In this document: piece after piece, positions 1 to 64,000 of the stretch | Position numbering within the stretch: the first letter of the stretch is position 1 | Layout: each line of letters begins with the position of its first letter | Program-made: the position numbers and the translations under genes | Notes under the pieces: generated by a model | What the model was told of the DNA's origin: nothing | Databases searched by the model: none | The model's input: the letters and a program-made list of their open reading frames with translations, nothing else | Assembly (NCBI GenBank): GCA_963721525.1 | Contig: CAVRJL010000015.1 | Span: forward strand, 1-64,000 | Length of the DNA: 64,000 bases | Direction: 5' to 3' | From: an uncultured Negativicutes bacterium | Lineage (GTDB): Bacteria > Bacillota > Negativicutes > JBAXTZ01

Positions 1-830
1 GTTCACCAGGTTGGGTAAATTTTATGGAATTATGTTATTCTGATCTTTTAGAATACTTATCAACTTGCAAATCACCTCAACAAATGTTTGGTACATTAGT
101 GAAAACATTTTATGCGCAGCAAAATAATATTGATCCAAAAAATATTATTTGCGTGTCAATAATGCCATGCACTGCAAAAAAAGCTGAAGCAATACGTCCA
201 GAAATGTTTTCAGACGGTAATCAAGATGTTGATTATGTTATAACAACACGTGAGCTTGCAAATATGATAAAAGCTATTGGGATTAACTTTAAAAATATTT
301 CTGAAGAAAAATTTGACGCTCCGTTAGGTATATCTACAGGCGCAGGCGTAATTTTTGGAGCAACAGGCGGAGTTATGGAAGCAGCTCTTAGAACTATTTA
401 TGAATCATTAACTAAAAAAACTTTAAAAGATATAGACTTTGTAGATTTTCGCGGCTTACAAGGAATAAAAGAAGCTACAATCAATATTAATGGACTTGAT
501 GTAAAAGTAGCAATTGCTCATACATTAAAAAACGCACGAAAAATAATGGACCTTGTCCGCACAGGTAAAGCCGATTATCATTTCATTGAAATTATGGCTT
601 GTCCTGGGGGTTGTATAGGTGGCGGTGGACAACCTTATACAAAAGAAAAAAATATTCGTCAACAACGAGTATATGCAATCTATGAGTGCGATGTATCGAT
701 GCCAATTCGTAAAGCTCATGAAAATCCGGCAATAAAATTTTTATATGAAAATTTTTTACAAAGGCCAAACGGTCCGCTAGCTCATAAATTATTACATACT
801 CATTATCACAAGCAAAGGCGCTGTTCATAA
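1..830 (+). CDS. [FeFe]-hydrogenase group A catalytic subunit, C-terminal part (5' end outside window)
   Basis: Frame is open from the window edge (SPGWVNF = end of H-cluster motif L1); L2 MPCTAKKAE, L3 EIMACPGGCIGGGGQP; small-subunit-like tail RKAHENP...LLHTHY. Confidence 0.95.
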   Translation, partial: SPGWVNFMELCYSDLLEYLSTCKSPQQMFGTLVKTFYAQQNNIDPKNIICVSIMPCTAKKAEAIRPEMFSDGNQDVDYVITTRELANMIKAIGINFKNISEEKFDAPLGISTGAGVIFGATGGVMEAALRTIYESLTKKTLKDIDFVDFRGLQGIKEATININGLDVKVAIAHTLKNARKIMDLVRTGKADYHFIEIMACPGGCIGGGGQPYTKEKNIRQQRVYAIYECDVSMPIRKAHENPAIKFLYENFLQRPNGPLAHKLLHTHYHKQRRCS

Positions 831-857
831 TTTTTTTAAAAAATTGAAATTTTATAG

Positions 858-885
858 TTGCAAGAAATAAAATTTAGGTTATAAT
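858..885 (+). promoter_or_regulatory. sigma-A-type promoter for tRNA-Leu
   Basis: TTGCAA-16 nt-TATAAT, 12 nt before the tRNA. Confidence 0.6.
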
Positions 886-897
886 AATATTTCGAAT

Positions 898-980
898 GCG
901 GGAGTGGCGGAATTGGTAGACGCGATAGACTTAGGATCTATTGGGTGACCGTGCGGGTTCAAGTCCTGTCTCCCGCACCA
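898..980 (+). tRNA. tRNA-Leu(TAG)
   Basis: GCGGGAG/CTCCCGC acceptor, ATAGA-CT-TAG-GA-TCTAT anticodon arm, GGTTCAAGTCC, encoded CCA. Confidence 0.97.
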
Positions 981-1001
981 TATTAATAAATGTTTTTATT
1001 T

Positions 1002-1035
1002 AAAGCTTTCGAAGTTTTTCTTCGAAAGCTTTTTT
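1002..1035 (+). terminator. intrinsic terminator
   Basis: AAAGCTTTCGAAG-loop-CTTCGAAAGCTTT followed by T run. Confidence 0.85.
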
Positions 1036-1125: not shown

Positions 1126-1574
1126 ATGAAAAAAAAATATTAGTATTAAATGGTCCAAATTTAAACATTTTAGGGAAGCGTGAACCCAATGTTTATGGGT
1201 ATAACAATTTAGACGAAATCAATATTGAGCTTAAAAATATTGGGGAAAAAAATTATATAACTATTGAATTTTTACAGTCTAATATAGAGGGGGAATTAAT
1301 TAATATTTTACAACATGCGGAAGAAAATTTTCAGGCAGTAATTTTTAATCCAGGTGCTTTTAGTCATTATAGTATTGCCCTTCGCGATTGTATATCGTCA
1401 GTTTCTTTACCTGTTGTAGAGGTACATATTTCTAATATTTATGCACGTGAGCAATTTAGACAATGTTCTGTTACTGCAGGGGTTTGTAGCGGTACAATAA
1501 TTGGTTTTGGCGTTGATAGTTATCGTTTAGCGTTGATAGCAATAATGAAAAAATTTAAGGATATACAATGTTGA
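1126..1574 (+). pseudogene. aroQ: type II 3-dehydroquinate dehydratase, frameshifted in an A9 tract right after ATG (otherwise intact)
   Basis: ATG-A9-TATTAG gives MKKKY*; the -1 frame reads ILVLNGPNLNILGKREPNVYG...NPGAFSHYSIALRD...EVHISNIYAREQFR to TGA 1572-1574; absent from ORF track. Confidence 0.92.
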
Positions 1575-1690: not shown

Positions 1691-1895
1691 TACTCGTTAA
1701 AATATAACGAATTTCAATATTTGAGAAAAATTTAGCAAAAATAGAGCTTAATATCTTGGAATATATACGCAAGGAGTTTATAGCATTTGTATCGACAATC
1801 AATCGATAATATTACAATCTTACAATATTCATTAGAAAAAATCTTGATCGAATTTTAAATGGCTAAAATATAAATTTTTGGAGGTGAAAGGTAAA

Positions 1896-2462
1896 ATGAT
1901 TTCAAGTAATGATTTTCACAATGGTTTAACTATAGAAATTGAAAATAATATATGGCAAATTATCGATTTTCAACATGTTAAACCCGGTAAAGGGGCAGCA
2001 TTTGTCCGTACTAAATTAAGAAATGTCAAAACAGGTGCTGTTGTTGAACGAACTTTCAATTCCGGAGAAAAAGTAGCTAAAGCGCGGATTGATCGCCGTA
2101 AAATGCAATATTTATATTCCAATAATATACAATATACTTTTATGGACAATGAAACATTTGAACAAATAGAAGTTACAAAAGAACAATTAGGAGATGTAAT
2201 TAATTTTCTTAAGGAAAATATAGATATAGAGTTTATGTTCTTTATGGGAAAGATAATAGGAATAGAGTTACCTATTTATGTTGATTTGAAAGTCATTGAA
2301 GCAGACCCTGGAATAAAAGGAGATACAGCAACAGGAGGCAATAAATTAGCTACATTGGAAACAAGGTACGTAGTTCGCGTTCCATTATTTATCGTACAAG
2401 GAGATATTCTTAAAATAGATACTCGGTCTGGTGAATATGTTGAAAGAGTAAATAGCAAATAA
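1896..2462 (+). CDS. efp: elongation factor P
   Basis: FQHVKPGKGAAFVR, YVER; GGAGG RBS before ATG 1896. Confidence 0.98.
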   Translation: MISSNDFHNGLTIEIENNIWQIIDFQHVKPGKGAAFVRTKLRNVKTGAVVERTFNSGEKVAKARIDRRKMQYLYSNNIQYTFMDNETFEQIEVTKEQLGDVINFLKENIDIEFMFFMGKIIGIELPIYVDLKVIEADPGIKGDTATGGNKLATLETRYVVRVPLFIVQGDILKIDTRSGEYVERVNSK

Positions 2463-2482
2463 CAAATAAGGTACTTTAATTT

Positions 2483-2731
2483 ATGAATAATTTAACACTA
2501 GTTGACAAAAATATTATAGGCCCAATAATTATAACTGAACAAGCAATTGCGGCAATTATAATTAGTATTATTGAAAATGATGAAGAAGTTTTTGGTTTTA
2601 GCGGCGGATTTATAAGTGAAATTAAACATAAAATTAATGTCAATACTGTGCAAGGAATTAATATCAGTTTAAATCTTGAAGTTAGCGAAGTTAATGTGAA
2701 TATAGAAGGATTAAAATTTAGGAATGATTAA
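2483..2731 (+). pseudogene. Asp23/Gls24 (YqhY-like) protein with internal deletion, 82 aa
   Basis: N-terminal GPIIITEQAIAAI..GFSGGF and C-terminal LEVSEVNVNIEGL both present, middle missing; efp-yqhY-nusB synteny. Confidence 0.65.
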
Positions 2732-3170: not shown

Positions 3171-3313
3171 TAAAAATAATCTGACAAATGGAGAAACGAA
3201 GATTTATTTTTCAACGAAGAATTAGGTGAATTTTAAATTGGAATAAAAGTTTCTCATATTAAAGAATGTATGAATAGCATAAGATTAGGATAATTGTCTT
3301 TAACGAGGTATTT

Positions 3314-4224: not shown

Positions 4225-6114
4225 ATGAGCAATTGGATTAACACAATAAATTCTTTAAATGACTTCAAAAAAATTCCTATTCAATATTATTCCCAACTCG
4301 CTGAAGAAATTCGCGAAATGCTAATAAATACTACCTCTGTCAATGGCGGACATTTGGCTTCAAATTTAGGAGTAGTTGAATTAACGTTAGCGTTGCATAA
4401 AATTTTCAATTGTCCTGTCGATAAAATAGTATGGGATGTAGGACATCAGTCTTATACTCACAAAATCTTAACGGGCCGTAGAAATAAATTTACAACTTTA
4501 AGACAATTTAACGGATTAAGTGGATTTCCAAAGCTTGAAGAGAGTATTTATGATTGTTTTGGCACAGGGCATGCTGGAACATCGGTTTCAGCTGCGCTTG
4601 GATTTGCTTTATCTAGAGATATAGATAATGATAACTTTTCCTCTATAGCTATTACTGGAGACGGAGCATTTACTTGCGGTATGATTTATGAAGCTTTAAA
4701 TCAAGCGGGGCACTCCGGAACTAATATTACTATTATTTTAAATGATAACGCTATGTCTATTTCTAAAAATGTTGGTGCTTTATCCAAATACTTTCTTAAA
4801 CTGAGAACAATGCCAGTTTATTCAAAAGTCAAAAAAAATTTAGAAACTTTTCTACGAAAAATTCCTGCATTAGGCAACAGTTTCATCGATTATGGCGAAA
4901 AATTTAAAGATATAGTAAAACATGTAATAATGCCTGGTGCTTTTTTTGAAGAAATAGGATTTAAATATATTGGCCCTATAAATGGACATAATATACAAGA
5001 AATGTTAGAAATTTTTGAAAATACAAGAAAAGAAAAAGGACCTATTGTTTTACATGTACTTACACAAAAAGGAAAAGGATATAAGCCTGCTGAAACCAAT
5101 TCTGATAAATTTCATGGGATCGGTCCTTTTTCAATTTCTACAGGAAAGAAAATAAAAAAGAAAAATGCTCCTGAAAGTTATACAAAAGTTTTCTCTAATA
5201 TATTAGTTCACGAGGCACAACGAGATAAAAACATTGTGGCTATTACAGCTGCAATGAAATATGGTTCAGGATTAGAAAAATTTGCTGAGATATTTCCTAC
5301 GAGATTTTTTGATGTTGGTATTGCTGAAGAACATGCGGTAACATTAGGATCAGCTATAGCATCAACCGGGAAAAAAGTTATAATTTCTATATACTCTACT
5401 TTTTTACAAAGATCTTACGACAATATTATTCACGACGTATGTTTGCAAAATATACCAGTAATTTTTATGTTAGATCGAGCCGGTGTAATCGGAGAGGATG
5501 GACCAACTCATAATGGTGTCTTTGATTTATCATATTTAAGACATATACCTTTGATGAATATTGCCGCGCCAAAAGACGAAGTAGAACTAAAAGCACTATT
5601 TAGATGTGCATTAGAACTTAATAAACCAATCGCTATTCGTTATCCGAAAGAAAATGGGGTAGGAATTGATTATATGGCAAATAATGAAAAAATTATTTTT
5701 GGTACAGGTGAAAGATTAATAGAAGGTCAAGAAATTGTTTTATTAGCTATAGGTTCTATGGTGCAAGAAGTAATAGAAGCTGCGCGACTATTACAAGTCA
5801 AAAATATATATGCTAGCGTTATAAATATGAGGTTTATTAAACCTCTTGATGAATATTTATTATTAAATTTAGCAAAAAAAAATAAAATTTTTTTTACAAT
5901 AGAAGATAATATTATCCAAGGTGGTTTCGGTTCAGCCATTTTAGAATTTTTTAATGAAAACAATTTAATGAAAAAACTTATAAGATTAGGATTTCCTGAT
6001 AAATTTATTGAACAAGGACCAAGAAAGTTTATTTTAGAAAAATACAACTTATCAGCAAAAAAAATAGCTGCTAAAATATTACGATATATACAAATTCAAA
6101 ATGAAAATGAATGA
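4225..6114 (+). CDS. dxs: 1-deoxy-D-xylulose-5-phosphate synthase
   Basis: GGHLASNLG, WDVGHQSY, GDGA..ND, GIAEEHA, GEDGPTH. Confidence 0.98.
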   Translation: MSNWINTINSLNDFKKIPIQYYSQLAEEIREMLINTTSVNGGHLASNLGVVELTLALHKIFNCPVDKIVWDVGHQSYTHKILTGRRNKFTTLRQFNGLSGFPKLEESIYDCFGTGHAGTSVSAALGFALSRDIDNDNFSSIAITGDGAFTCGMIYEALNQAGHSGTNITIILNDNAMSISKNVGALSKYFLKLRTMPVYSKVKKNLETFLRKIPALGNSFIDYGEKFKDIVKHVIMPGAFFEEIGFKYIGPINGHNIQEMLEIFENTRKEKGPIVLHVLTQKGKGYKPAETNSDKFHGIGPFSISTGKKIKKKNAPESYTKVFSNILVHEAQRDKNIVAITAAMKYGSGLEKFAEIFPTRFFDVGIAEEHAVTLGSAIASTGKKVIISIYSTFLQRSYDNIIHDVCLQNIPVIFMLDRAGVIGEDGPTHNGVFDLSYLRHIPLMNIAAPKDEVELKALFRCALELNKPIAIRYPKENGVGIDYMANNEKIIFGTGERLIEGQEIVLLAIGSMVQEVIEAARLLQVKNIYASVINMRFIKPLDEYLLLNLAKKNKIFFTIEDNIIQGGFGSAILEFFNENNLMKKLIRLGFPDKFIEQGPRKFILEKYNLSAKKIAAKILRYIQIQNENE

Positions 6115-6915
6115 AAAAAAACGGTTAGATATATTATTGGTAGAAAAAATGTTTGCTCCAACTAGAGAAAAAGCTCAAGCATATATATTATCTGGAATGG
6201 TTAAAGTAGACAATCATATTTCTACTAAAGCAGGAGTAAAAATAAGTATAAATTCAAATCTTGAGCTAATAAATAAAAAAAGAATATATGTATCTCGCGG
6301 GGGATTAAAATTAGAAAAAGGATTAAAAATATTCTCCATTAATTTAGTAAATAAAATTGTAGCGGATATTGGGGCATCAACCGGTGGATTCACTGACTGC
6401 GCGTTGAAAAATGGGGCAATCAAAGTTTATGCTATTGATGTTGGATATGGTCAGTTAGATTGGAAATTGCGCACTGATGATCGCGTAATTAATATGGAAA
6501 AAGTAAATGCTAGGTTTTTAACTGAGAATTCTCTAGAAAAAGTTGATTTTGTATGCGCGGATGTTTCTTTTATTTCATTGGAAAAAATATTGCCAATAAT
6601 TTACTTAATATTTAAAGAAAATAGCGAAGCAATACTTCTCATTAAACCACAATTTGAAGTAGAAAAAAAAATATAGGGAAAAAAGGAGTAGTTAAAGAAC
6701 TTAAAGCTCATATTAGCGTAATTAGAAAAATTATAGTTTTTGCTAATAAAATTGGTTTTACGATAAAGGGTTTAACTTTTTCCCCTATAAAAGGACCTGA
6801 AGGAAATATTGAATATTTATTATATATAAAAAAGGCAATTGTTAAAAAAAAGATGGAAAGTGAATTAAATATTGAAAAAATAGTTTATGCTGCTGGCGTG
6901 GAATTAAATAAATAA
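6101..6915 (+). pseudogene. tlyA: TlyA rRNA methyltransferase, frameshifted at A9 tract 6663-6671
   Basis: S4 domain, YVSRGGLKL, DIGASTGGFTD, KPQFE, then stop at 6676; shifted frame continues IGKKGVVK...FSPIKGPEGNIEYL to TAA 6913-6915. Confidence 0.92.
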
Positions 6916-7776: not shown

Positions 7777-7789
7777 ATAAAATATAAAA

Positions 7790-7945
7790 ATAGATTTATT
7801 ATCTAAGGGGAACTTGCCAAACTTTTATTAAAATCTGAATTAAAAGGTGTAAAGTTAGTTATTTAATCAGCATGTGTGACTAGATATGATACTTTATTTA
7901 TAGCGAAAGAAATTAAAAATAAAGCAAAATATATTTTTTTATCAA
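7790..7945 (+). pseudogene. argR: arginine repressor remnant
   Basis: II*GELAKLL...VI*SACVTRYD aligns by eye to ArgR 'TQEELxxxL...VTQATVSRD'; nadK-argR-recN synteny. Confidence 0.55.
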
Positions 7946-8163
7946 TGTGGATGTGTTTAATTTAGAATATTTAGCTATAATCGCATATAATAATATATAA
8001 ATAGTTATAGAGTTATACTTCAGTAATTTAAAACTTTAGGAATTTTATGAATTAATATACACAGCTAATATAAAAATCAGTCTTTATCAATTCCAAAAAA
8101 AACATATAAAATGTTTAACAAATTGTTTAAAGACTATAATAAAAGCTAATAAAGATTATGAAA

Positions 8164-8435
8164 ATGTTTTTATCAAAATTACAAAATAAAAAACGAATTA
8201 TAAAAAACACAGATAAAAACAAAATTAGATTAGAAAATTCAGTTAAAATTTTAAAAGACTCAGGAAAATCGTAGGATTGTTAAAAAAATATACGATTTAG
8301 TAATGCCTAATACTAATTTTTCGGTTGTTTTTAAATTAATCTAACAACTTGCTCGTTATGAAAAAAATAAGATCATTAAGTAAATTAATGGATATTGAAA
8401 ATAATTCTGGGCCTGGTGTAAATATGGAAGAGTAA
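8164..8435 (+). pseudogene. recN: RecN remnant fragments
   Basis: MFLSKLQ...IRLENSVKILKDSGKS* resembles the RecN N-terminal Walker A region; DIENNSGPG resembles 'VEFLxSxNPG'; synteny. Confidence 0.4.
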
Positions 8436-8493
8436 TTAATTGAAGAAATAAAAAATAATTTAAAAAATATTATTTTATAACAAATTAGCATTA

Positions 8494-8522
8494 TTGACAC
8501 TTAGAAAAAACTTTGATATAGT
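8494..8522 (+). promoter_or_regulatory. sigma-A promoter of iscS operon
   Basis: TTGACA-17 nt-TATAGT with TG extended -10. Confidence 0.75.
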
Positions 8523-8560
8523 CAGAATATGGGTTATATAAGCTGTAATGGAGAGTTTTT

Positions 8561-14678: not shown

Positions 14679-14691
14679 TAAAGAGGACGAA

Positions 14692-14976
14692 ATAGACAAT
14701 ATAGGCAATGACGAATTTAAGAAAAAAATAGCATTGCGCAAGATAATCAAGAAAACATTGTTATTTTTACTGACGAAAAAGAAAAGAACATTACTATTAT
14801 GAAATTGTGATTATAACAATCATTCTCAAAAGAACTATACTTGTAATTGTCAAAAAGAAGTATTTATATCCAAAATAGAAAAAGATGAAAAAGATGAGCT
14901 TGTTTATGTAGATACAACGGAAGAAGATTTTAAAGTTATTAAAAAAATTTACGAACAACTACATTATGAAAAATAA
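14692..14976 (+). pseudogene. DUF1292 family protein, degraded
   Basis: RBS GAGG then ATA instead of ATG; fragments ENIVIFTDEK / EHYYYEIVII / EVFISKIEKDEKDELVYVDTTEEDF in different frames; follows ruvX as in Firmicutes. Confidence 0.75.
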
Positions 14977-28775: not shown

Positions 28776-28815
28776 AATCACTCTCTACTTATTCCAATCA
28801 CTCTCTACTTATTCC
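28776..28815. repeat. perfect 20-bp tandem duplication
   Basis: AATCACTCTCTACTTATTCC x2. Confidence 0.95.
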
Positions 28816-28846
28816 TTAGAAATATTAGAAATAATAGAAATAAAAT

Positions 28847-41380: not shown

Positions 41381-41430
41381 TTTTCACCATTATTAAAAAT
41401 AGTTAATGAATATCCTTGAGCATCAAACTT

Positions 41431-41916: not shown

Positions 41917-41937
41917 AAGTACCTATTAGATATTTTG

Positions 41938-44313: not shown

Positions 44314-44318
44314 ATAAT

Positions 44319-46045: not shown

Positions 46046-47340
46046 AATAATATTTTTTTAAAAACCTTATAAAATCCCGGGAAAGATATATTAATACATT
46101 CTTCATCAGATATATTATTATTGCCTTTCGATCCAAATCCTGCAACTGTAAATGCCATAGCAATGCGATGGTCTTTGTGTGTTTCTATAAAAGCGCCGTT
46201 ATATCCTTTATCGCAGTAATTTTTTCCATATATTATCAACCCGTCAGCTAATACCTCGACTTCTCCTCCCATTGCTTTGATTGCTTCGGCAATAACTAAT
46301 AATCTGTTACTTTCTTTGTTTATCAATTCTTCAGCGTTTCGAATTTCAGTTATTCCTTCAGCATACATAGCCAATACTGCAATAATGGGTATTTCGTCAA
46401 TTAACCTAGGTATTATGAATCCGTTTATTTTTACACAATTTAATTTACTATACTTGATTTTAATATCTGCAGTCATTTCTTGCGAAACAATTTTCGTATT
46501 TATTATTTCTAAATCAGCGCCCATCATTTTAACAACGTCCAGTATCCCAGTCCTAGTAGGATTTATTCCTACATTTTCAATAATAATTTCTGATCCATTT
46601 ATTATTAACGCACTCGCTATTAAAAAAGCTGCAGAAGAAATATCTCCCGGTACTTCAATTTTCTGTGCCAATAATTTATTTATAGGCTTGGTAATTATTT
46701 TCTTTGTTGTATTTATACATTCAATAATTTCTAAATTTGCATTAAATTGTTTTAGCATTAATTCTGTATGATTTCTTGAAATAACGTTTTCAATAACAGT
46801 TGTCTGAACCCCTGCACATAAACCAGAAAGTAAAATTGCTGATTTCACCTGAGCGCTTGGTATAGGTAAACTATAAATTAAAGGATAAAACTTAGTAGTT
46901 TTTTTTATTTTGATATACCCATTTTTGTTTTCTATTTTTGCGCCTAATAAACTTAACGGTTCAATAATACGGCTCATTGGACGCTTTTTTATAGAATTAT
47001 CACCTTCTAAAGTAACATCTATATTTTGAGAGCACAAAACACCACTTAACAATCTAATAGTTGTTCCCGAATTTCCTACATAAATCAACTTATTAGATTG
47101 TTTTATTCCTCGTAACCCTACTCCAGATACAATTATCTCATTCTCTTTTTGCTCGACATCGATACCTAGATGTCTTAAACATTTAACAGTTGATAAACAG
47201 TCAGTACCTGCTAAAAAATTGCTAATAATGGTCGTTCCGTAGGCAATAGCCCCTAAAATAAGGGCTCTATGAGTTATCGATTTATCGCCTGGAACTTTAA
47301 CTTTTCCTTTCAAAGGTTTCATATTAATAAAATTTAACAT
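46042..47340 (-). CDS. aroA: EPSP synthase
   Basis: PGDKSITHR, GNSGTT, SAQVKSA, IDEIP, DHRIAM. Confidence 0.98.
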   Translation of the reverse strand: MLNFINMKPLKGKVKVPGDKSITHRALILGAIAYGTTIISNFLAGTDCLSTVKCLRHLGIDVEQKENEIIVSGVGLRGIKQSNKLIYVGNSGTTIRLLSGVLCSQNIDVTLEGDNSIKKRPMSRIIEPLSLLGAKIENKNGYIKIKKTTKFYPLIYSLPIPSAQVKSAILLSGLCAGVQTTVIENVISRNHTELMLKQFNANLEIIECINTTKKIITKPINKLLAQKIEVPGDISSAAFLIASALIINGSEIIIENVGINPTRTGILDVVKMMGADLEIINTKIVSQEMTADIKIKYSKLNCVKINGFIIPRLIDEIPIIAVLAMYAEGITEIRNAEELINKESNRLLVIAEAIKAMGGEVEVLADGLIIYGKNYCDKGYNGAFIETHKDHRIAMAFTVAGFGSKGNNNISDEECINISFPGFYKVFKKILL

Positions 47341-47358
47341 TGCAATTAATCCTTAAAT

Positions 47359-48372
47359 TCACTCTAAAGTTTTTAGAAAATCAGAAAGAGCTTTTATTTG
47401 TTGCATTAATTGCAAATAATTTTCAGGGTTAAGAGATTGTTGTCCGTCACATAAAGCTTTCTTAGGTTGAGGATGCATTTCTATCATTAGTCCATCCGCT
47501 CCAGCAGCTATAGAAGCCATAGACATTGGTTTTATTAATCTCCATAGTCCTGTACCATGGCTTGGATCTACGATAATAGGAAAATGACTCAATTTTTTTA
47601 TTATACCAACTGCACTAATATCTAAAGTATTTCTTGTGTATGTCTCATAAGTCCTTATTCCGCGCTCGCAAAAAATAATCTGATCATTTCCTTCACGAAC
47701 AATGTACTCTGCTGCGTTTAGCCATTCATCAATAGTAGCTGCTATACCACGTTTTATTAAAATCGGCTTATTTATTTTTCCTACTTCTTTTAATAACCTA
47801 AAATTCTGCATGTTACGCGCGCCTATTTGTAAGATATCAGAATATGTGGTAGCTAATTGAATGCTGTCAATATCGGTAACCTCTGTCACTATTTTCAATC
47901 CAGTATATTTACCTATTTCGAATAAATATTTTAAACCTTCTTCTTCTAATCCTTGAAAAGCGTAAGGAGAAGTACGCGGTTTAAAAGCTCCTCCTCGTAA
48001 AAATTGAGCTCCTCCCTGTTTAACAATTTTTGCTGCTTTAAATAATTGTTTACGCGATTCTACAGCACAAGGTCCTGCTATAATTACCGGATTGCCTGCT
48101 CCAATTTTTATTCCTCCGACATCTATTATCGAACAAGTACTTCTAAATTCTCTACTTACCAATTTATATGGAGCTGAAATAGAAACTGTTTTCTCTACAC
48201 CATCAAGCGCTTCAAAATTTAAAGGTAATATTTTTAGCTTATCACCAATAATACTAATTATTATACGGGAATATCCTACAACCATATGCGCTTTTAATCC
48301 ATTTTCATTAATATAATTTATTGCTTTTTCTATTGTGCTTTCTTTTACATCAGTCTCCATTATCACAAGCAT
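47359..48372 (-). CDS. aroF: DAHP synthase type I-beta with N-terminal regulatory domain
   Basis: AGPCAVE, RGGAFKPRTSPY, QIGARNMQN, VDPSHG. Confidence 0.97.
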   Translation of the reverse strand: MLVIMETDVKESTIEKAINYINENGLKAHMVVGYSRIIISIIGDKLKILPLNFEALDGVEKTVSISAPYKLVSREFRSTCSIIDVGGIKIGAGNPVIIAGPCAVESRKQLFKAAKIVKQGGAQFLRGGAFKPRTSPYAFQGLEEEGLKYLFEIGKYTGLKIVTEVTDIDSIQLATTYSDILQIGARNMQNFRLLKEVGKINKPILIKRGIAATIDEWLNAAEYIVREGNDQIIFCERGIRTYETYTRNTLDISAVGIIKKLSHFPIIVDPSHGTGLWRLIKPMSMASIAAGADGLMIEMHPQPKKALCDGQQSLNPENYLQLMQQIKALSDFLKTLE

Positions 48373-49935: not shown

Positions 49936-51742
49936 TTACTTATTTTTTATGTTTACCTCTTTTTTTATCAAACATTTTTCCTTAGATCCTATTAAATCTG
50001 TTCTATGTAAAATTTTTAAAGCTTGCACGACTAATTTATGATTTTCTTTTTTCTTATACTGCATCAGAGCTCTTTGCATTTTTCGTTCTTTTATTGATCT
50101 TGCTACATATACTTTTTCTCCAGTAAAAGGATTCATTTTTGTGTAATACATACAAGTCGCTAAACTTCCTGGAGTAGGTATAAAATCTTGTACTTGCTCA
50201 GGATGATATCTGTAGTCGCGTAAAAATTCTGCTAATTCTAATGCTTCGCGTAATCCTGATCCTGGATGGTTTGCCATAAAATAAGGTACTAAATATTGTT
50301 CTTTTTTTACTTTACATGTTGTTTTATAAAATAAGTTGGAGAATTTTAAAAATATATCTTTCCCAGGTTTTCTCATTAAATTAATTACTTTTTTAGATAT
50401 GATCGGGAGCAACTTTTAATTGTCCGCTTATATGATATTCACAGATTTGTTCAAGAAATTTATTATTTTTTTCTTCAAGTAAATAATCATATCTTATTCC
50501 AGAACGAATAAAAACTTTCTTCACTTTTGGCAATTTTCGCAGTTTATTTAATAAATCGGAGTAATCTCTATGATTTACTTCCAAATTTTCACATTTTTTT
50601 GGAAATAAGCATTGTTTATACTTGCAAGCTCCTTTTTCTAGCTGTTTTTTACAAGCTTTATTACGAAAATTAGCAGTAGGTCCGCCCACATCGTGAATGT
50701 AACCTTTAAAATTTTTATCATTTATAAATATCTTTGCTTCATTAATAACAGACTCGTGGCTACGTTTTTGTATTACTCTACCTTGATGAGAGTATAAAGC
50801 GCAAAAACTGCACCCTCCAAAACATCCTCTTGAAGAAACCAGACTGAACTTAACTTCTTCTAAAGCTGGCACTCCCCCCTTTTTATCATACTTAGAATGC
50901 CATGTCCTCATGAACGGCAAATCGTAAATTTTATCCATTTCACTTTCTGTTAAAGGCATTGAAGGAGGATTTTGTATTAAATACTTATTATTGTGCTTTT
51001 GTACTAAAACATTTCCTCTTATAGGGTCTTGTTCTTCATATTGGATTTTAAATGATTTGGCAAACAATATTTTACTTTCTTTTATTTCTTCAAATGAAGG
51101 TATAAAAAAGGCTTTTTTGACATCCTGCTCCTCTCCTATATAGCATGTACCGGGAACATCTTTTATTTGTTCTATTTTTTTACCTTTAGAAAGTTTTTTT
51201 ACAATTTCTACAATTGATTTTTCTCCCATGCCATATACTAATAGATCGGCATTCGAATCGATAAGTATTGAACGACGAATATTGTTGTCCCAATAATCAT
51301 AATGGGCAAAACGACGCAAACTTGCCTCAATACCTCCTATAATAATAGGTAACTTCTTCCAAGCCTCACGCACACGATTTGAATAAACTATTGTTGCTCT
51401 TTCGGGTCTTTGCCCTATAATTCCTCCTGCGCTGTAATTGTCTTTAGAACGAATTTTCTTTGCAGCTGTATATTGATTTAACATTGAATCCAAGTTCCCT
51501 GCAGTTATAAGAGCCGCATATTTAGGTTCTCCAAATTGCTTAAAATCCTTTATATTTCTCCAATCTGGTTGCGCTATTATGGCTACCCTAAATCCCACGC
51601 TTTCTAACACTCGTCCTATAATAGCAGCTCCAAAAGAGGGATGATCTATATAAGCATCCCCGGTAATTAATATAATATCAGGTTTTTCCCAACCTAAACT
51701 TTTCACTTCTTCAACTGTAATCGGTAAGAAATACTTTACCAT
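49936..51742 (-). pseudogene. ygiQ: YgiQ-family radical SAM protein split by a frameshift near 50395
   Basis: [33 protein letters not shown] then [11 protein letters not shown]...QVQDFIPTP in another frame. Confidence 0.9.
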
Positions 51743-52967: not shown

Positions 52968-54827
52968 TTAAATATAATTTTTAACATCTTCTTTGTATTC
53001 TGTTTCACATTGTTTTTTTACATGATCTATAAGTAATTCTAATTCATTATCCGAAACAAATACACCTTGTACTCGCATAGGCTTTATAGAACTAAAAGGA
53101 CTAAATAACATATCTCCTTTTCCCAATAATTTTTCTGCTCCGCCTATGTCTAAGATAGTTCGCGAATCAACTTGTGAAGCAACAGAAAAAGCTATTCTAG
53201 AAGGAATATTATTGCGAATTGTTCCGGTTATAATATCAATTGAAGGTCTCTGTGTAGCCAATATAAGATGAATTCCTGCCGCTCTGGCCTTTTGTGCTAA
53301 TCTGCATACGGCATTCTCCACATCTACTGGAGCTACCATCATCAGGTCAGCTAACTCGTCTATAATTATTACAATAAAAGGTAATTTTTCTTGTTCATTC
53401 TTTTGATTATAACGATTAATATCTCTTACAACCGCTTTAGCAAATAAATTATAGCGTTTATTCATCTCTTTAACTGCCCAATTAAGGGCATTTGAAGCAC
53501 GCTCAGCGTTAGTCACAACAGGAACAAGTAAATGAGGGATACCGTCATAATTAGTTAATTCTACCATTTTCGGATCAATCATAATAAATTTCACTTCGTT
53601 AGGTCGAGCCTTATATAAAATACTGCTTATTATAGAATTAATGCATACGCTTTTACCCGAACCGGTCGAACCTGCGACAAGCAAATGTGGCATATTCGAT
53701 AAATCACTTGTTACTGTATTACCAGTAATATCTTTTCCCAATCCTATGGTTAAAGGTGATTTTGACATACGAAATTCATTGCTGTCAATGATATCATATA
53801 AAGACACGTTAGTAATTATTTTATTTGGAACTTCAATTCCTATGGCAGCTTTACCTGGTATTGGAGCCTCAATTCTTACTGCACCTACGGCAAAGTTTAA
53901 AGCTATATCATCAGCAAGATTTGTTATTTTGCTTACTTTTACGCCAAGCGCCGGTTCCAATTCATACCGCGTAACAGCTGGTCCCACTGCAATGTTTATT
54001 ACTTTAGCTTCTACTCCAAAACTAGCTAAAGTTTCTTCTAAAAATTTCACTAATTCATTAAAGACATCCTTATTTGTGCTTTTTATTTTTACAGGCATAT
54101 GTAATAAATTTAATGATGGTAATTTATATTTATTGTTGTCAGTATTTTTAATTTCACCTTTTAACTCGGAGATTGAAACTATATTATTTTGCTTTGTTTT
54201 AGTGTCTTCTGCTCTTTTAATTTTTTCTACATCAAAAATTTCTTGAGTTTTTTTTATTTTTTTTTCTGGCGTAAATTTTTCACGTTTTTGATGCATTTTA
54301 TCTATTGTATTCGTGTAAATTTTGTTTAAACGTTTTTTATTATCAATAACATAATCTGTTATGGACCATGTTGTAGCTGATATTATAGCTATTAAATTCA
54401 AAAAAAGCAAAACTATATTTGCTCCTATTAGTCCAAATAATTTACGCATTCCTAAAATAATAAACCCAGAAAAAATACCACCGTAATTTTTTATTGTTGC
54501 AGGATTATTAATTGGAATTAATTCTTGTTTTTCAGGAACAAATATTCCGTGGTAAAGTGACAACGAAAATAAAAAAAGACTTATTATAGCTAAAAATCTT
54601 AAAGAGTACTTTATAGGACGTCGCGTGATAATATATTTAAAGCCTATAACTATAAAAATAATAGATACAACATATCCTCCTATTCCAAATCCGTAAACTA
54701 AAAAATATTTAATAAATTCGCCTACAAATCCAATATTTTTTACTAACAAAGTAGATAATGAAAATACACCAAACCCTGTGTATATTATACCAATAATCTC
54801 ATACTTTATTTTTTGCGCATTCGCCAT
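52968..54827 (-). CDS. ftsK: FtsK/SpoIIIE translocase, lacking C-terminal gamma domain
   Basis: N-terminal TMs, [38 protein letters not shown]; stops about 25 aa after RVQG. Confidence 0.95.
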
Positions 54828-57811: not shown

Positions 57812-59155
57812 TTAAAATCCATTAAATATCTTAGGTATTCCTTTAAAATTTTTTCCAGACACTTTTACCATTTTTTTCATCATTTTTTTTGTTGACTCAA
57901 ATTGGTTAAGTAATCTGTTTATATCTTGAACATCAGTTCCACTTCCTTTTGCTACTCTTTGTTTGCGGTGGGCATTCATTATTTCCGGTTTTCGTTTCTC
58001 CTGAAGAGTCATAGAGTGAATAATTGCTTCTATTTTTACTACTTGACTATTATCAACTGGAGAATGTTTGCACTGAGCTAATTTACTACCTATACCAGGT
58101 ATTAGTCTCATAATTTGCGATAATGAACCCATTTTTTTTATATTCTGTAATTGATCAAGTAAATCATCAAGAGTAAATTCTTGTTTACGTAATTTATTTT
58201 CTAAAACAGAATTATTTTTTTCATCAAACGCAACTTCAGCTTTTTCCACAAGAGATAATATGTCTCCCATACCAAGTATTCGAGAAGCCATTCTTTCTGG
58301 ATGAAATTGTTCTATACCATCAACTTTTTCGCTTATACCTATATATTTAATCGGCTTTCCTGTTATTGCTTTTGCGGATAATGCTGCTCCGCCACGAGCG
58401 TCCCCATCTAACTTAGTTAATATCATGCCGGTTATATCCAATTTTTTATTAAATGTTTCGGCAATATTTATTGCGTCTTGCCCTGTAATAGCATCTATGA
58501 CCAACAAAATTTCGTGTGGCTTGACACAACTTTTTATATCTAGTAACTCCTGCATTAAAATTTCATCAATATGCATCCTTCCAGCGGTATCAATAATGAT
58601 AATATCACATGCATATTGAGCTGCATATTTTAGGGCATTTACTGTAATTTCTTGCGGCTTTACTTTGTTTCCCATTTGAAAAACATGAATCTTAGTTTTT
58701 TCTCCTAGTACCTGCAATTGTTTTATTGCTGCTAATCGATAAATATCGGCAGCTACAACCAAAGGGTTTTTTCCTTGTTTTTTAAGTTCCTTTGCCAATT
58801 TAATAGATGTAATTGTTTTACCGCTTCCTTGTAAGCCAACCATCATAATTATAGTTGGAGGATTTGAAGACATTGATATTTTATTATACTTTTCTCCCAT
58901 CAAAGAAGTTAATTCTTTATAAACTATTTTTATTATGTGTTGGACAGGAGTTAAACTTTCTATTACTTGCACTCCTACTGCCTGATTTTTTACCTTTTCT
59001 ATAAATTCTTTTATAACTTTAAGGTTCACATCAGCTTCTAATAAAGCCATCCTAACATCACGAAGAGCTTCAGCAATATCCGTTTCTCTTAATTTCCCTT
59101 TACTCCGTAATTTTTTAAACGTTAGTTGTAATTTTTCTGAAAGCGCGCTAAACAT
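57812..59155 (-). CDS. ffh: signal recognition particle protein
   Basis: ALLEADV, GLQGSGK, DTAGR, TKLDGDARGG, SRILGMGD. Confidence 0.99.
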   Translation of the reverse strand: MFSALSEKLQLTFKKLRSKGKLRETDIAEALRDVRMALLEADVNLKVIKEFIEKVKNQAVGVQVIESLTPVQHIIKIVYKELTSLMGEKYNKISMSSNPPTIIMMVGLQGSGKTITSIKLAKELKKQGKNPLVVAADIYRLAAIKQLQVLGEKTKIHVFQMGNKVKPQEITVNALKYAAQYACDIIIIDTAGRMHIDEILMQELLDIKSCVKPHEILLVIDAITGQDAINIAETFNKKLDITGMILTKLDGDARGGAALSAKAITGKPIKYIGISEKVDGIEQFHPERMASRILGMGDILSLVEKAEVAFDEKNNSVLENKLRKQEFTLDDLLDQLQNIKKMGSLSQIMRLIPGIGSKLAQCKHSPVDNSQVVKIEAIIHSMTLQEKRKPEIMNAHRKQRVAKGSGTDVQDINRLLNQFESTKKMMKKMVKVSGKNFKGIPKIFNGF

Positions 59156-59451: not shown

Positions 59452-60720
59452 TTATTTACGTTTTTTAATTTTTACAATTATATTTTTATCAGTTAAAAAA
59501 TCCTTATAATTTAGCGCACGACTATGTTCTGTATGAACCCATTTAGAATTACGATGGTGAAAAAGTCCGATAAAAGCGATAGGTATCCAGCTAAGCATAA
59601 ATACTGGATAAAAAGGTAAATAATACCATATTTTCCCTTTTGCTCTCATTCTTATAAGAATATAAGTCATTATAATATATTGAACATAAGTAAACATTTG
59701 TTGTAAAGATAATGGCAACAAATAATGTAAAATAAAAGTATATTTTATAGTTACCTGCGAAATAATCATAAAAATTGTTGATGATATTAAAAATAAAGGT
59801 TGTAATAAAATTGTTATTATCTCCAATAGACGAATATCAAATTTTTTTATTCCAGACTTTATGATTTTCGGAATATACCTAAATGCTACATCAAATTGAC
59901 CTTGCAGCCACCTTTTTCGTTGTCGCCAACTTTGTATGAAAGTAAGTGGTTTCTCATCATATACTATAGCTTCATGAGCCCAAGTTGTTTTACATCCTAT
60001 GAGCATAGCTTTCATAGTAAATTCCATGTCTTCAACAAGACAAGTTGTTTCCCATCCAATCTTTTTTAATAAGTCATAAGATATGCACATACCTGTTCCA
60101 CCTAAACAGCAAGATAATCCCATATTATATTTAGCTAAATGCCAAACATGATTTACTACCCAAAACATCATAGAAAAATTTGCTGATATCCAGGTATCAT
60201 TAGGATTTTTACTATCAATAAATCCTTGAATAACTTTTTCTCCGCGCGATAATCGATTATTCATTACGAGCAAAAAATCCGGATGAACAAAATTGTCAGC
60301 ATCAAATACACATATTCCGTTATATTCTTTATCTATTTTAGCCATTTTTTTTAACAGCCATTCTAGCGCATATCCTTTACCTCGTTTGTTAGTATTAAAA
60401 CGCTCAAATACTTTTATTCCTGTTTCTTTAATTATCTGCGCTGTTTTATCTGTACAATTATCTGCTACCACATATATATCATATAAGTAATTAGGATAAT
60501 TTAAAGCTTGTAAATTTTTAATAAGCTGACTAATTACTTTTTCTTCGTTATGAGCTAGGATAAATAAAGCGAATCTATTTTTAGGATCAATATTTTTTTT
60601 TTCTTTTCTATGCCATAACCCAAAAAAACCTACTATAAAATAGTACCATGAAAACAATATTATAAATATTTGTAAAGGCACCATAATTATATCAAGAACA
60701 TGCATTAAATAACCTTCCAC
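59452..60720 (-). CDS. GT2 family membrane glycosyltransferase
   Basis: AHNEE, ADNCTD, GKGYAL, FDAD, ED, QRKRW. Confidence 0.93.
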   Translation of the reverse strand: MEGYLMHVLDIIMVPLQIFIILFSWYYFIVGFFGLWHRKEKKNIDPKNRFALFILAHNEEKVISQLIKNLQALNYPNYLYDIYVVADNCTDKTAQIIKETGIKVFERFNTNKRGKGYALEWLLKKMAKIDKEYNGICVFDADNFVHPDFLLVMNNRLSRGEKVIQGFIDSKNPNDTWISANFSMMFWVVNHVWHLAKYNMGLSCCLGGTGMCISYDLLKKIGWETTCLVEDMEFTMKAMLIGCKTTWAHEAIVYDEKPLTFIQSWRQRKRWLQGQFDVAFRYIPKIIKSGIKKFDIRLLEIITILLQPLFLISSTIFMIISQVTIKYTFILHYLLPLSLQQMFTYVQYIIMTYILIRMRAKGKIWYYLPFYPVFMLSWIPIAFIGLFHHRNSKWVHTEHSRALNYKDFLTDKNIIVKIKKRK

Positions 60721-60723
60721 TCT

Positions 60724-61386
60724 TTAATTTGCTAAAAAATTTATAAAACCAAAACATATATAACAAATCGTTATGCTAAATAAAACAAGATAGACTGAAA
60801 AAGAAAAAGAAATCAAGATTATTAAAGCCAATAATGATGAAGGTATCCAAAGCAATTTTCGAAAACAATTATTTTCCCTTTTAAAATCAGGTAATTTTAA
60901 AATACTCACCATTAAAATCCCTACTAGCAAGACATATATTACATTTATCCATATAGGTAAAGATAAATCGCTAAGTGCATAACTTACTATAGCAATACCT
61001 GCTATTGGAGTAGGTACTCCTTGAAAATAGCCCTTTATGCTATTTTCAGTAATATTAAAACGAGCTAATCTCCATATTCCGCATAAAACAAATACTGCAG
61101 CAATTACTGCCCCAAGCCAATTTAATGACTTTAAGCATTTAAAATATACTAAAATTGCTGGTGCTGCTCCAAAAGAAATAGCATCACATAATGAATCAAG
61201 TTCTTTCCCCATATCGTCTGATACATTAAAAAATCTAGCTATACGACCATCAAGCACATCTGCTACAGCAGCTAATAATATTAATAACGCTGCTAAAGTA
61301 TAAAAGCCGTTTATAGTAGCGATAATAGCTAAAACTCCGAATAAAGCATTAGACAAAGTAAATATATTAGGTATCAAGTTTTTCAT
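60724..61386 (-). CDS. pssA: CDP-diacylglycerol--serine O-phosphatidyltransferase
   Basis: PNIFTL, DVLDGRIAR..GKELDSLCDAISFG, RLARFN. Confidence 0.96.
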   Translation of the reverse strand: MKNLIPNIFTLSNALFGVLAIIATINGFYTLAALLILLAAVADVLDGRIARFFNVSDDMGKELDSLCDAISFGAAPAILVYFKCLKSLNWLGAVIAAVFVLCGIWRLARFNITENSIKGYFQGVPTPIAGIAIVSYALSDLSLPIWINVIYVLLVGILMVSILKLPDFKRENNCFRKLLWIPSSLLALIILISFSFSVYLVLFSITICYICFGFINFLAN

Positions 61387-62030
61387 TACTTCACCTTAGG
61401 TAAAATACCTATAATAGTTTCACCGCAACGCACTTTATCTCCTTTTTTTACCTTTATATCAACAAATTCAGGGACAATAATTTCAGTACAAGAACCAAAT
61501 TTTATCATTCCGTACTCTATTCCTTTTTTTAATTCGCTTCCTAATTTTACCCAAGAAACAATTCGTCTAGCTAATATTCCTGCGATCTGAGTAACTAATA
61601 CTTTTATTTCCCCATTATCTATTCCTATAGAATGACGTTCGTTTTCCCAAGAAACAAAAGACTTGTAAGCTGGAAAAAACCGCCCTTGACAATATTGCCG
61701 AAATTTTATTTTTCCTTCAATAGGGCTTCTGTTTATATGCACATTAAATGGGGATAAAAAAATTGTTATTTTTATTCCTGGTGCATCTATAAAATCCCCC
61801 TCAAAAATTTTTTCAACACCCATAACCTTACCTTCTGCAGGGGAGACAATAAAAAATTTATTTATCGGAATATTTCTTTTCGGATTGCGAAAAAACCAAA
61901 ACATATACGCAGTTAAAATAAAAAATGGGCTACTTGACACTAAATTAATATATTTATAAACACCTATTGTTATTAACATAAAAACGATAATAAATAAAAA
62001 TCCTTCTTGAACAATAATTCCTTTTTTCAT
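61386..62030 (-). CDS. psd: phosphatidylserine decarboxylase
   Basis: FFRNP, FNVHINRSP, QIAG..ARRI, KFGS cleavage motif. Confidence 0.96.
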   Translation of the reverse strand: MKKGIIVQEGFLFIIVFMLITIGVYKYINLVSSSPFFILTAYMFWFFRNPKRNIPINKFFIVSPAEGKVMGVEKIFEGDFIDAPGIKITIFLSPFNVHINRSPIEGKIKFRQYCQGRFFPAYKSFVSWENERHSIGIDNGEIKVLVTQIAGILARRIVSWVKLGSELKKGIEYGMIKFGSCTEIIVPEFVDIKVKKGDKVRCGETIIGILPKVK

Positions 62031-62063
62031 ATTTTAAAACCAAAATAATTATTCATTAAACCT

Positions 62064-62801
62064 TTAATTATCACCATTTTTTTTATTCTTTAATATTGCC
62101 AAAACAAATTTAGGTAAAGTTAATACTCTTTTGAAACGATAAGGTTCTTTTATTAATCTATAGAACCATTCCAGATGTATATTCTGCATCCACAACGGAG
62201 CTCTTTTAGCTGTTTTAGCCAAAATATCAAATGTTCCTCCTACTCCGATTGCAAGTGAAATTTTCAATTTATCAGCGTTATTTGATATCCAAAATTCTTG
62301 TTTTGGCACTCCTAAACCAACAAGTAAAATATCGGGAGTAACTTGATTGATTTTTTCTATAATTTTTTCATTATCTTTTGGAATAAAATATCCATCATTA
62401 CAGCCACATATCAATATTCCAGGGAAATTATTTTCAACATTAATTTTAGCTTTTTCTATTATCTCTTTGGTTGCTCCTAAAAAAAAAAGTCGATATTTTT
62501 CTTTAATTGCTTGGGTAAATAACTTTTTCGCTAAATCAAATCCTGTAACTCTTTCATAAATAGAATGTCCATAATATTTTGCTGCTAAAACTACACCTGC
62601 TCCATCAGGAATGGCTAAATAAGCTTTATTGATAATTTCAGCCAGTTTTTTATTTTTTTGTGCTTGCATAATCATTTCGGTATTTACAGTAACTATATGG
62701 GAAAATTGCTTACTAGAAATTATTTTTTTACAATAAGCAATTGTTTCGTTCATTGTTACAATATCTACTCGCATACCTAATAATTTTAGTGATTTCAACA
62801 T
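62064..62801 (-). CDS. WecG/TagA/CpsF glycosyltransferase
   Basis: VTVNTE, PDGAGV, ERVTGFDL, VGLGVPKQE, VGGTFD, LEWFYRL. Confidence 0.95.
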   Translation of the reverse strand: MLKSLKLLGMRVDIVTMNETIAYCKKIISSKQFSHIVTVNTEMIMQAQKNKKLAEIINKAYLAIPDGAGVVLAAKYYGHSIYERVTGFDLAKKLFTQAIKEKYRLFFLGATKEIIEKAKINVENNFPGILICGCNDGYFIPKDNEKIIEKINQVTPDILLVGLGVPKQEFWISNNADKLKISLAIGVGGTFDILAKTAKRAPLWMQNIHLEWFYRLIKEPYRFKRVLTLPKFVLAILKNKKNGDN

Positions 62802-62859
62802 TCATTAATCCTTTAATTTTAACTTATTAAAAATTTGAAAAATTTTTTCTTATAAAATT

Positions 62860-63345
62860 ATTTATTATTGTATGGGCTAATTTTAAATATTCTTTTCTTT
62901 ATTTTCTCAATTCTACTGTTAAATCTATTTTTTTATACTTTTAAAATTATTACATTTACAATATCTCCATTATTATATTTTTGTATAATTTTAAATCAAA
63001 GCTCAGACTGCAAAGCTTTTATGTTCAAACTTATTCGCTTACTTTTAATATTTCGTTGGTACTATTAATTTTTCAATTAGCTCTAGTAAAATAAACTTCG
63101 ATTAATTATCAAGATTTTTAACATACTCTAAAGCTAATTGCGAAAAAGAAAAAACTCCTTTGCATAAATGCTTAATTGTTCGGAATAAATTTTTTTAGTA
63201 TGTATCATGCTAGTGTTTTATATTCTTTTATTTTTGGCAAAAACACCCTGACCTACAAAAACAATATTTTTTAATATACTTATAATTTCTATTCGAAAGA
63301 TATCACTTTTACGAATATTTTTACTTTCTTTGGTACGTTCTTTCA
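62860..63345 (-). pseudogene. rpsA: ribosomal protein S1 remnant (former C-terminal half of IspH-S1 fusion)
   Basis: NIRKSDIFRIEIISILKNIVFV and KSKRISLNIKALQSEL*FKIIQKYNNGDIV match S1 repeat motifs; stops and deletions. Confidence 0.75.
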
Positions 63346-64000
63346 TTAAATTTGTTTTTCTAAATTTTTTTCTACCCCTTTTATAATCCAATCTGGAGTC
63401 GATGCTCCAGCTGTTATTCCTACTATATTTTTATTTTTAAACCATTCGATTTTTAATTCGTCAGGTTGTTCAATATGGTAAACTATACAAGAAAATTGTT
63501 TGCATAATTGAGCTAGATGTTTTGTATTAGCACTATGCTTTCCACCTATTACTAACATTATATCACTTTGTTTTGCAACTTCCACTGCTGCTGCCTGACG
63601 TCTTATTGTTGCTAAACAAGTTGTTCTTTTTACTTTTATGTTTTTACATCTTTTTTTAAACTCAGTTATTATCGCATTAAATTGCTCACCTATAAAAGTG
63701 GTTTGCGCTACAATACCCACGCAATCTAATGTTGGTAGGTTATTTACTTCATCTACATCTCCTATTACATAATAATTCCTTCCAGACCACTCCATAATGC
63801 TTTTTACCTCCGGATGGTTTTTATCTCCGACTATTATAACATGTTTAACCTCCATAGCCGATTTATAAGCTTCATTTTGTACTTTTTTAACATCAGGGCA
63901 AGTGGCATCTACTATTTTAAAATTTTTCTTTCTTCCTATTTCATAAATTTTAGGGCCCACTCCATGAGAACTTATTACAATTGTTCCTTCATTTTTTTCT
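63346..64000 (-). CDS. ispH: HMBPP reductase IspH (5' end outside window)
   Basis: SHGV, VDATCP, HPEV, AQTT, TCLAT, SANT, GITAGASTPDW. Confidence 0.97.
   Translation of the reverse strand, partial: EKNEGTIVISSHGVGPKIYEIGRKKNFKIVDATCPDVKKVQNEAYKSAMEVKHVIIVGDKNHPEVKSIMEWSGRNYYVIGDVDEVNNLPTLDCVGIVAQTTFIGEQFNAIITEFKKRCKNIKVKRTTCLATIRRQAAAVEVAKQSDIMLVIGGKHSANTKHLAQLCKQFSCIVYHIEQPDELKIEWFKNKNIVGITAGASTPDWIIKGVEKNLEKQI

Follow-up and report, generated by a model that had tools for sequence, protein, structure and literature searches.

A strongly reduced, AT-rich Negativicutes lineage, probably a hydrogen-producing symbiont of an anaerobic host with a predicted lipopolysaccharide-free outer membrane

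The stretch of 64,000 nucleotides analyzed here (the window) comprises positions 1-64000 of contig C15 in assembly G000. It forms part of a low-GC core of 553 kb from a reduced Negativicutes genome, whose gene losses, envelope and probable dependence on a host are the subject of this study. Compared to the two larger genomes of its family, G001 and G002, the core contains long syntenic blocks from which genes have been cut out singly, most loss being clean deletion. In the window, pepP, which follows the intact type II dehydroquinase gene (1131..1541, forward strand) in both relatives, is unmatched, xseA/xseB of both relatives are deleted in place at a 143-bp nusB-ispA junction (3171..3313), and an AT-rich gap of 784 bp between nadK and nifS (7777..8560) lies where the relatives have recN and one or two further genes; a 202-aa (amino acid) gene beside recN was considered as ArgR but is an rRNA methylase. 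A class IV aminotransferase persists as a ghost at 28283-28561 (36% identity, E 1e-9) within a gap at 28075..28846 (reverse strand), and the sigma-70 factor gene adjoining it in the relatives has no orthologue in G000. FtsK (52968..54827, reverse) lacks its gamma domain, with residues 7-648 of 743 matching and the last 93 unmatched in the assembly, and IspH (62802..64000, reverse) is without the ribosomal S1 half with which it forms a fusion in G001, its place being taken by a gap of 544 bp. Eroded sequences are represented by an Asp23-family remnant (2480..2731, forward; weak, E 0.02) and a DUF1292-like ghost readable in three frames (14680..14975, forward). The latter agrees with the DUF1292 named in a preliminary description of this DNA, although its Pfam E value of 0.007 is below cut-off. 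The gene ghosts claimed there are real but not many: 85% of the window is still occupied by open reading frames (ORFs) of at least 80 aa, genes were lost mainly by deletion, and assembly errors account for part of the breaks, whereas the claim of shuffled operons is borne out by comparison with the relatives. An ORF at 20900-21187, tried as a further ghost, encodes an intact zinc finger.

For detecting ghosts, 585 proteins of the relatives were compared by BLAST with 159 gaps, the reversed gaps serving as control (0 matches). Ghosts were found at their native positions for dnaA, xerC, a nucleoside kinase, dtd and others, xerC and dtd being named by eye. While dnaA is present in both relatives, no match to its hidden Markov model was obtained in G000; its ghost (C3, 11885-11999; 60% identical, E 6e-5) lies upstream of dnaN as the gene does in both relatives.

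The bin G000 comprises 769,348 bases in 16 contigs (completeness 81%, contamination 2%) and is chimeric, with about 217 kb of foreign DNA beside the low-GC core. Both parts were separated by tetranucleotide profiles, GC steps and gene content, with borders set by eye, resulting in a core of 552.6 kb made up of C3, C5, C6 to 90.0 kb, C11, C12, C15 to 209.5 kb and C16 from 4.45 kb; all core counts exclude the foreign DNA. C5 and C6 overlap by 1.6 kb, and hydA spans from C6 into the window start, where the C-terminal part of the FeFe hydrogenase HydA is encoded (3..830, forward), the N-terminal part and NuoE-/NuoF-like subunits being found near the C6 end. No IS-like (insertion sequence) repeat family appeared in a self-BLAST of the core, and the genome likely has two rRNA operons. 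Outside the core, C7 encodes another beta subunit of ATP synthase (61% identity with the core copy) and C13 a second RpoD (40% identical). The Patescibacteria-like look of C2 and C7 is an unconfirmed impression, and Atlas did not place the IleS of C7 below phylum. Contig C8 (G000:C8:1-83287) is an 83-kb fragment of a large phage binned with the symbiont, with genes for a tail tube, UvsX, a primase and a split DNA polymerase; 15 of 29 tested ORFs match PHROGs.

Contigs from the RNA run X1 match the window between 40 and 60 kb at 99% identity or more (21 records) as well as the ribosomal operon (23 records); this run holds only 0.09 of the sampled words, may not be independent of the assembly and names neither host nor habitat. 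At three spots in the spc ribosomal operon, the X1 contigs do not have the extra bases of the assembly and, consequently, single frameshifts, several of them at A runs, were not counted as decay. Frameshifts affect 10 of the 155 kept orthologues, and several essential genes are split. The split rpoC, dnaE, rplB, rplE, fusA and pyrG were rejected as pseudogenes and are likely assembly errors, as demonstrated in the spc operon only. A MutS-MutL fusion of 1460 aa (G000:C15:84396-88778) is likely an assembly error as well, joined on an A9 run and corresponding to two adjacent genes in the relatives. At G000:C16:75601, a ribosomal protein gene includes an A8 run that is longer by one A in one RNA contig but not in another, which may be due to slippage or error. 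Either decay or assembly error may also account for the breaks in two window genes, a TlyA-family rRNA methyltransferase (6101..6912, forward; broken at an A9 run near 6663) and a YgiQ-type radical S-adenosylmethionine gene (49936..51742, reverse; split by a single frameshift near 50400).

The placement in Negativicutes suggested earlier holds. The GTDB family of G000 includes only two other genomes, G001 (2.4 Mb, 97% complete) and G002 (3.4 Mb, 98%); Ffh (57812..59155, reverse), employed as placement marker, is 68-69% identical to those of both family members and joins them at 100/99 support in a tree of 35 rows, and the presence of an OmpM porin is confirmed by fold (see below). Among 5.8 billion proteins, the best Ffh matches were three at 66-69%, one of them labelled 'Negativicutes bacterium', followed by the next at 61%; the Ffh of G001 is identical to a protein so labelled by its source. 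The tree represents a single gene with a long branch (0.68 for G000 versus about 0.18 to the relatives) and leaves the clade's tie to named Negativicutes unresolved. In agreement with the previously claimed substitutions at invariant residues, Ffh of G000 departs at 17 columns that are invariant in the other 20 aligned sequences, the corresponding values being 0-5 for 19 of these and 15 for the most distant one, and its proportion of the residues F, Y, M, I, N and K is 0.356 versus 0.30, for this one gene. The PBP2 motif, one of the features from which affiliation had first been proposed (DSGKHWLIPKGNAQGEALGW), is present as quoted in a mreC-mreD-PBP2 block (39572..42819, reverse) syntenic with the relatives, in both of which it is nearly the same; Atlas did not place this PBP2 below phylum. 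A scan of named genome contigs for Ffh gave 80 loci at 54-58% (Ruminococcus, Bacillales and others) and was uninformative for placement. Assembled 16S was found in none of five relatives searched, and a 16S motif scan of metagenome contigs resulted in one locus at 88.5% identity, hence no close relative.

GC content amounts to 28.7% in the window and 29.2% in the core, with 18.4% at third codon positions (GC3), compared to 44-46% (GC3 42-50%) in sampled regions of G001 and G002. The AT bias formerly called extreme is strong relative to the family but not extreme among Firmicutes generally. Similarly, the long A tracts noted before are confirmed for A/T runs of at least 6 (430 versus 211+/-16 in 50 block shuffles) and at least 7 (178 versus 84+/-10), but runs of at least 10 are not enriched (6 versus 5) and the longest has 11 bases. 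From 57 essential genes hand-picked from sampled regions of the relatives, 44 are present in the core, indicating that roughly one quarter of the genome is missing from the assembly and that its size is about 0.72 Mb, with a range of 0.65-0.8 Mb because missing genes cluster in operons. At about 0.7 Mb, the genome would have a third to a fifth of the size of its closest relatives, and the smallest near-complete genomes of the class among those listed have 1.3 Mb. Only 155 of 579 G001 proteins (about 27%; those of at least 120 aa from about 0.7 Mb of sampled DNA) have an orthologue-like core match, at a mean identity of 56%, in contrast to 77% of the essential genes. With about 0.55 Mb of core assembled and about 0.7 Mb estimated, a free-living low-GC clostridium with a normal genome, which the preliminary description had named as the outcome that would contradict it, is not what was found. 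This is a real, strongly reduced new Negativicutes lineage. Loss of sporulation was dismissed as a specific sign of reduction, spo0A being absent in all three family genomes.

The envelope genes of this lineage are unevenly preserved. In the relatives, a cluster runs ppdK, ompH, lpxD-lpxC-fabZ-lpxA-lpxI-lpxB-msbA-waaA-lpxK-kdsB-kdsA-kdsD-lpxL-lptC-lptA-lptB-lptF/G (waaA, lptB and lptC named by position), followed in G001 by two ompM genes. G000 has ppdK-ompH and ompM in the kept order on C16, 5 kb apart and with four unrelated genes between. In the assembly, which lacks about a quarter of the genome, lpxC is absent, and from 15 further genes sought for lipid A, 3-deoxy-D-manno-octulosonic acid (Kdo) and lipopolysaccharide (LPS) transport (Lpt), 12 had no match and three matched only paralogues. 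Likewise, tamB precedes bamA in the relatives, in G001 after mlaE-mlaF-mlaD-tolC, while in G000 TamB (1480 aa) is readable only in its final 52 residues, immediately upstream of bamA (E 1-2e-4 when the gap set is searched and 0.003 for the entire assembly), and mlaE, mlaD and tolC are unmatched in the assembly. The mlaEFD-tolC-tamB operon before bamA, a Negativicutes trait, is accordingly not found. In contrast, the outer-membrane protein set of the class, OmpM, BamA and OmpH, is present: BamA is whole (631 aa) with intact C-terminus, OmpH is intact, CsaB is encoded, and OmpM is complete with signal peptide, SLH domain and a 16-strand barrel, its structural model (predicted local distance difference test score, pLDDT, 76) having OmpM1 of Veillonella as best structural match (E 5e-17). 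This resembles the envelope of Veillonella parvula (OmpM, BamA, TamB, MlaEFD-TolC, lpx/kds/lpt), the full cluster being found in the relatives, but G000 differs in having a tamB ghost and in that the remainder was not found; in the respective studies, mlaEFD-tolC-tamB and the Lpt cluster are called conserved in all Negativicutes (PMC5007114, PMC10665443, bioRxiv 2021.05.31.446380).

Regarding fatty-acid synthesis, the order in the relatives is fabD-fabG-acpP-fabF-rnc, whereas in G000 acpP and rnc are 611 bp apart, with fabF deleted between its own neighbours. For fabD, fabZ, accC and plsY, representing several loci, no match was obtained in the core, whose sole FabG-like protein is the EF-P reductase YmfI. 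A 340-aa gene of G001 tried as PlsX turned out to be FabD. The remaining lipid genes encode Aas, LplT, a YegS-type lipid kinase, CdsA, PssA and Psd, partly in a GT2-pssA-psd-TagA-like block of the window (59452..62801, reverse) syntenic with G001. Gain of Aas and LplT by transfer was rejected, as LplT-like genes occur in 44 of 151 class genomes including both relatives. Lacking fatty-acid synthesis, the cell would take up host lysophospholipids, fatty acids or diacylglycerol via LplT, Aas and the lipid kinase and feed them into the CdsA-PssA-Psd route, so that its membranes would be built from host lipids. As 3-hydroxyacyl-ACP (acyl carrier protein) for lipid A would also be lacking, the outer membrane would be an LPS-free bilayer tethered by OmpM.

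Regarding energy metabolism, a family scan retrieved the lysine route, Bcd/EtfAB, butyrate kinase, PduL, HydABC-type subunits together with the hydrogenase maturases HydEFG, F1Fo, H+-PPase and NadA/B, together with a sugar porter and transporters for nucleosides, nucleobases and peptides. Six APC-type permeases are found in the core, among them a BcaP-like amino-acid permease in the window (31941..33353, forward). Translations or BLAST to G001 served to identify glycolysis, acetate kinase, pyruvate kinase, the methylerythritol phosphate route and the shikimate operon, while for the purine block of G001 no orthologue match was obtained in the incomplete assembly. The organism would import amino acids, sugar and nucleobases, its ATP likely coming from substrate-level phosphorylation in glycolysis and lysine fermentation (KamA, KamDE, Kdd, Kce, Kal, Bcd/Etf, CoA transferase, butyrate and acetate kinases), electrons from NADH and reduced ferredoxin likely being vented as H2 via a bifurcating FeFe hydrogenase HydABC, with release of butyrate, acetate and ammonia. 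Lysine fermentation is not a new trait, KamD being 78-79% identical in the relatives. Fitting peptide feeding, an intact PreP-type M16C peptidase of 976 aa (G000:C15:128376-131306) and, on C16, a POT peptide transporter are encoded. An operon with molybdoenzyme, AllG, AllH, cyclase and nitrilase genes (G000:C15:183925-194798) is kept in so small a genome, as is a MazF-like toxin with a small upstream partner ORF (G000:C15:106496-107052).

The window also holds the intact shikimate operon aroF, aroA, aroK, aroC, aroB (43186..48372, reverse; named from translations), which together with chorismate mutase is kept alongside a prephenate-dependent tRNA hydroxylase (TrhP-like; G000:C6:6397-6774, 57563-58792). 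End steps to Phe, Tyr and Trp were not noticed, so that the products may be intended for modifying tRNA or for the host. Further features are EF-P (1878..2462, forward; 71% identical to both relatives), a divergent S-adenosylmethionine decarboxylase-like ORF (19111..19557, forward) which exceeds the AdoMet_dc cut-off at E 5e-6, as its earlier reading as SpeD-like would predict, and two ORFs without Pfam or NCBIfam match encoding 569 aa (16880-18589; 61% identical in G001) and 222 aa (36487-37155). A transfer-messenger RNA gene (21420..21763, forward) is directly followed by a change in sign of both gene strand and GC skew at 21764-21914, the aroQ-ruvX block being inverted versus ftsK-rimO relative to G001. 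This flip may mark an inversion edge or the terminus, where the xerC ghost and the FtsK without gamma domain may be of relevance.

Taking these results together, the organism is probably an obligate, likely intracellular, H2-producing Negativicutes symbiont of an anaerobic host, most likely a protist, that uses host lipids and has a predicted LPS-free outer membrane. Obligate host dependence is likely from the gene loss, whereas intracellular life and a protist host are inferred, strictly anaerobic metabolism, dnaA loss and lipid dependence matching protist endosymbionts. The host-restricted lifestyle proposed from the sequence alone gains support from the reduction relative to the 2.4-3.4 Mb relatives and the losses in place, and traits of reduced endosymbionts are evident: a genome smaller and AT-richer than that of relatives (about 0.7 Mb, 29% GC), fast protein evolution with bias to residues of AT-rich codons, as seen in Ffh only, and loss of functions for free life, as in the dnaA ghost and the fabF deletion. 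Several observations, however, weigh against this reading. The 13 essential genes absent from the core are ftsY, murC/D/G, ftsZ, tyrS, leuS, ftsH, rplU, rpmA, obg, nadD and coaBC, and groEL is absent from the assembly as well; a true loss of ftsZ was rejected, as the cell-wall operon runs off the C11 end after murF. In addition, G000 has preserved RecA, AddAB, MutS/MutL and RelA as well as genes for peptidoglycan and for a toxin-antitoxin pair, a larger set than old insect symbionts retain. A closed redox balance is not evident, as no pyruvate:ferredoxin or other 2-oxoacid:ferredoxin oxidoreductase was found in G000, compared to three in each relative, one such operon having been cut out in place, and Rnf is unmatched. 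No host was seen, neither host DNA nor habitat being established, and in the genes scanned no host-interaction proteins were noticed. A nucleotide (ATP/ADP) translocase was found in none of the three family genomes, although the search control was silent and the assembly is incomplete.

Further contrary evidence concerns the envelope. ADP-heptose genes, GT9 heptosyltransferases and O-antigen ligases normally serve the LPS core, and in G000 gmhA, hldE, hldD and gmhB appear intact (operon at G000:C3:17944-21050), a GT9 heptosyltransferase is present (C16:12497-13618; one homologue at 32%), and the sole break in an O-antigen-ligase-like gene coincides with an A13 run. The hldD gene is lacking in both larger relatives, but a foreign gain is unsupported, since it is of Negativicutes type (57-61% identity) and its nearest named matches are from this class. 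Moreover, lpxC is carried by 390 of 401 class genomes searched and by 347 of the 352 high-quality ones, and rplU-rpmA-obg, following ruvX in the relatives, is missing mid-contig and from the core, showing that a block can leave its old place for unassembled DNA. The lipid A/Kdo/Lpt block of the same reduced symbiont could likewise have moved to the unassembled quarter, with LPS still being made; we regard this as unlikely, though it deserves to be kept in mind. Loss of lipid A and LPS synthesis is considerably better supported and is likely, mainly because fabF has been deleted between its own neighbours and tamB eroded in place, neither of which is a block move, and because lipid A requires 3-hydroxyacyl-ACP from fatty-acid synthesis. 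The GT9 protein, furthermore, scores under the WaaC/WaaF cut-offs and is only 23-28% like the nearest copies in the relatives. A dependent but extracellular anaerobe with a small genome, scavenging lipids and amino acids from neighbouring cells or a host in the gut, in a biofilm or attached to a surface, would agree with the kept peptidoglycan, repair, stringent-response and oxygen-detoxification genes and with host-interaction and translocase genes not being seen, and reduced extracellular Firmicutes are reported to exist (bioRxiv 2025.05.29.656868). Such a lifestyle is nevertheless rather improbable, as dnaA erosion is described as an endosymbiont trait (PMC10579323), even the smallest near-complete genomes listed for the class are about twice as large, and no close relative is found among the 5.8 billion proteins, the best match being 69%. 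Finally, the chimeric bin, its indel errors and the frameshifted orthologues might suggest an incomplete, error-ridden assembly of an ordinary free-living low-GC anaerobe, with size and ghosts as artefacts. This is largely refuted by synteny, as genes are deleted one by one inside long contiguous blocks, and is highly improbable also in view of the contrast in retention between essential and all sampled genes, the 15-point GC drop, the long branch and the RNA contigs of a separate assembly that match the window.

Reduced symbionts are a known kind, and the novelty would lie in Negativicutes. The endosymbiont TC1 of Trimyema (PMC5034148) is also a low-GC (32.8%), reduced Firmicute from an anaerobic setting, with two rRNA operons as is likely for G000, but its genome of 1.59 Mb has 182 IS-related ORFs, whereas the core genome of G000, a diderm Negativicute, is estimated at about 0.7 Mb and shows no IS-like family; a 1.6-Mb genome does not occur within its family. 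Clostridia of termite-gut parabasalids, in a small-genome 'Acutalibacteraceae' clade, are reduced Firmicutes with little biosynthesis, one of them without dnaA, but belong to a different class and are described as having ATP/ADP translocases and no net ATP route (PMC10579323). G000 does not share the latter trait of these energy parasites, with glycolysis, lysine fermentation, kinases, F1Fo and H+-PPase kept. Endomicrobiellum of termite flagellates is similar in being fermentative, with about 1.1 Mb, 32% GC and key LPS genes reported absent in many (PMC11257099), but belongs to the phylum Elusimicrobiota, and its host is demonstrated, in contrast to that of G000. A described Negativicutes endosymbiont was not found in the literature searched, which leaves out most subscription journals, and the main text of a symbiont catalogue, as far as available, does not mention the class (bioRxiv 2025.05.29.656868), while a ciliate survey describes a cluster with many anaerobic ciliates, by enrichment, in which Negativicutes are prevalent (PMC11127453).

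Tentatively, the lineage might represent the first obligate endosymbiont in Negativicutes and the smallest genome found in the class. Living with an anaerobic protist and producing H2 and butyrate, it would have given up fatty-acid and lipid A synthesis as well as TamB and Mla, the two phospholipid bridges, but would possess an OmpM-tethered, LPS-free outer membrane and use its ADP-heptose pathway for a non-LPS acceptor. The 16S sequence, located on C12, is a ready target for fluorescence in situ hybridization for finding the host, and thanks to the near-complete, large relatives of the same family the losses can be read gene by gene. Repeated outer-membrane loss in Firmicutes is presented as an open question in previous work (bioRxiv 2021.05.31.446380; PMC5007114). 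Loss of TamB and likely of Mla and LPS, with BamA and OmpM kept, suggests an order in which lipid supply and LPS are lost first and the tether last and, if this is true, the lineage would represent an extant intermediate on the way to outer-membrane loss in Firmicutes.

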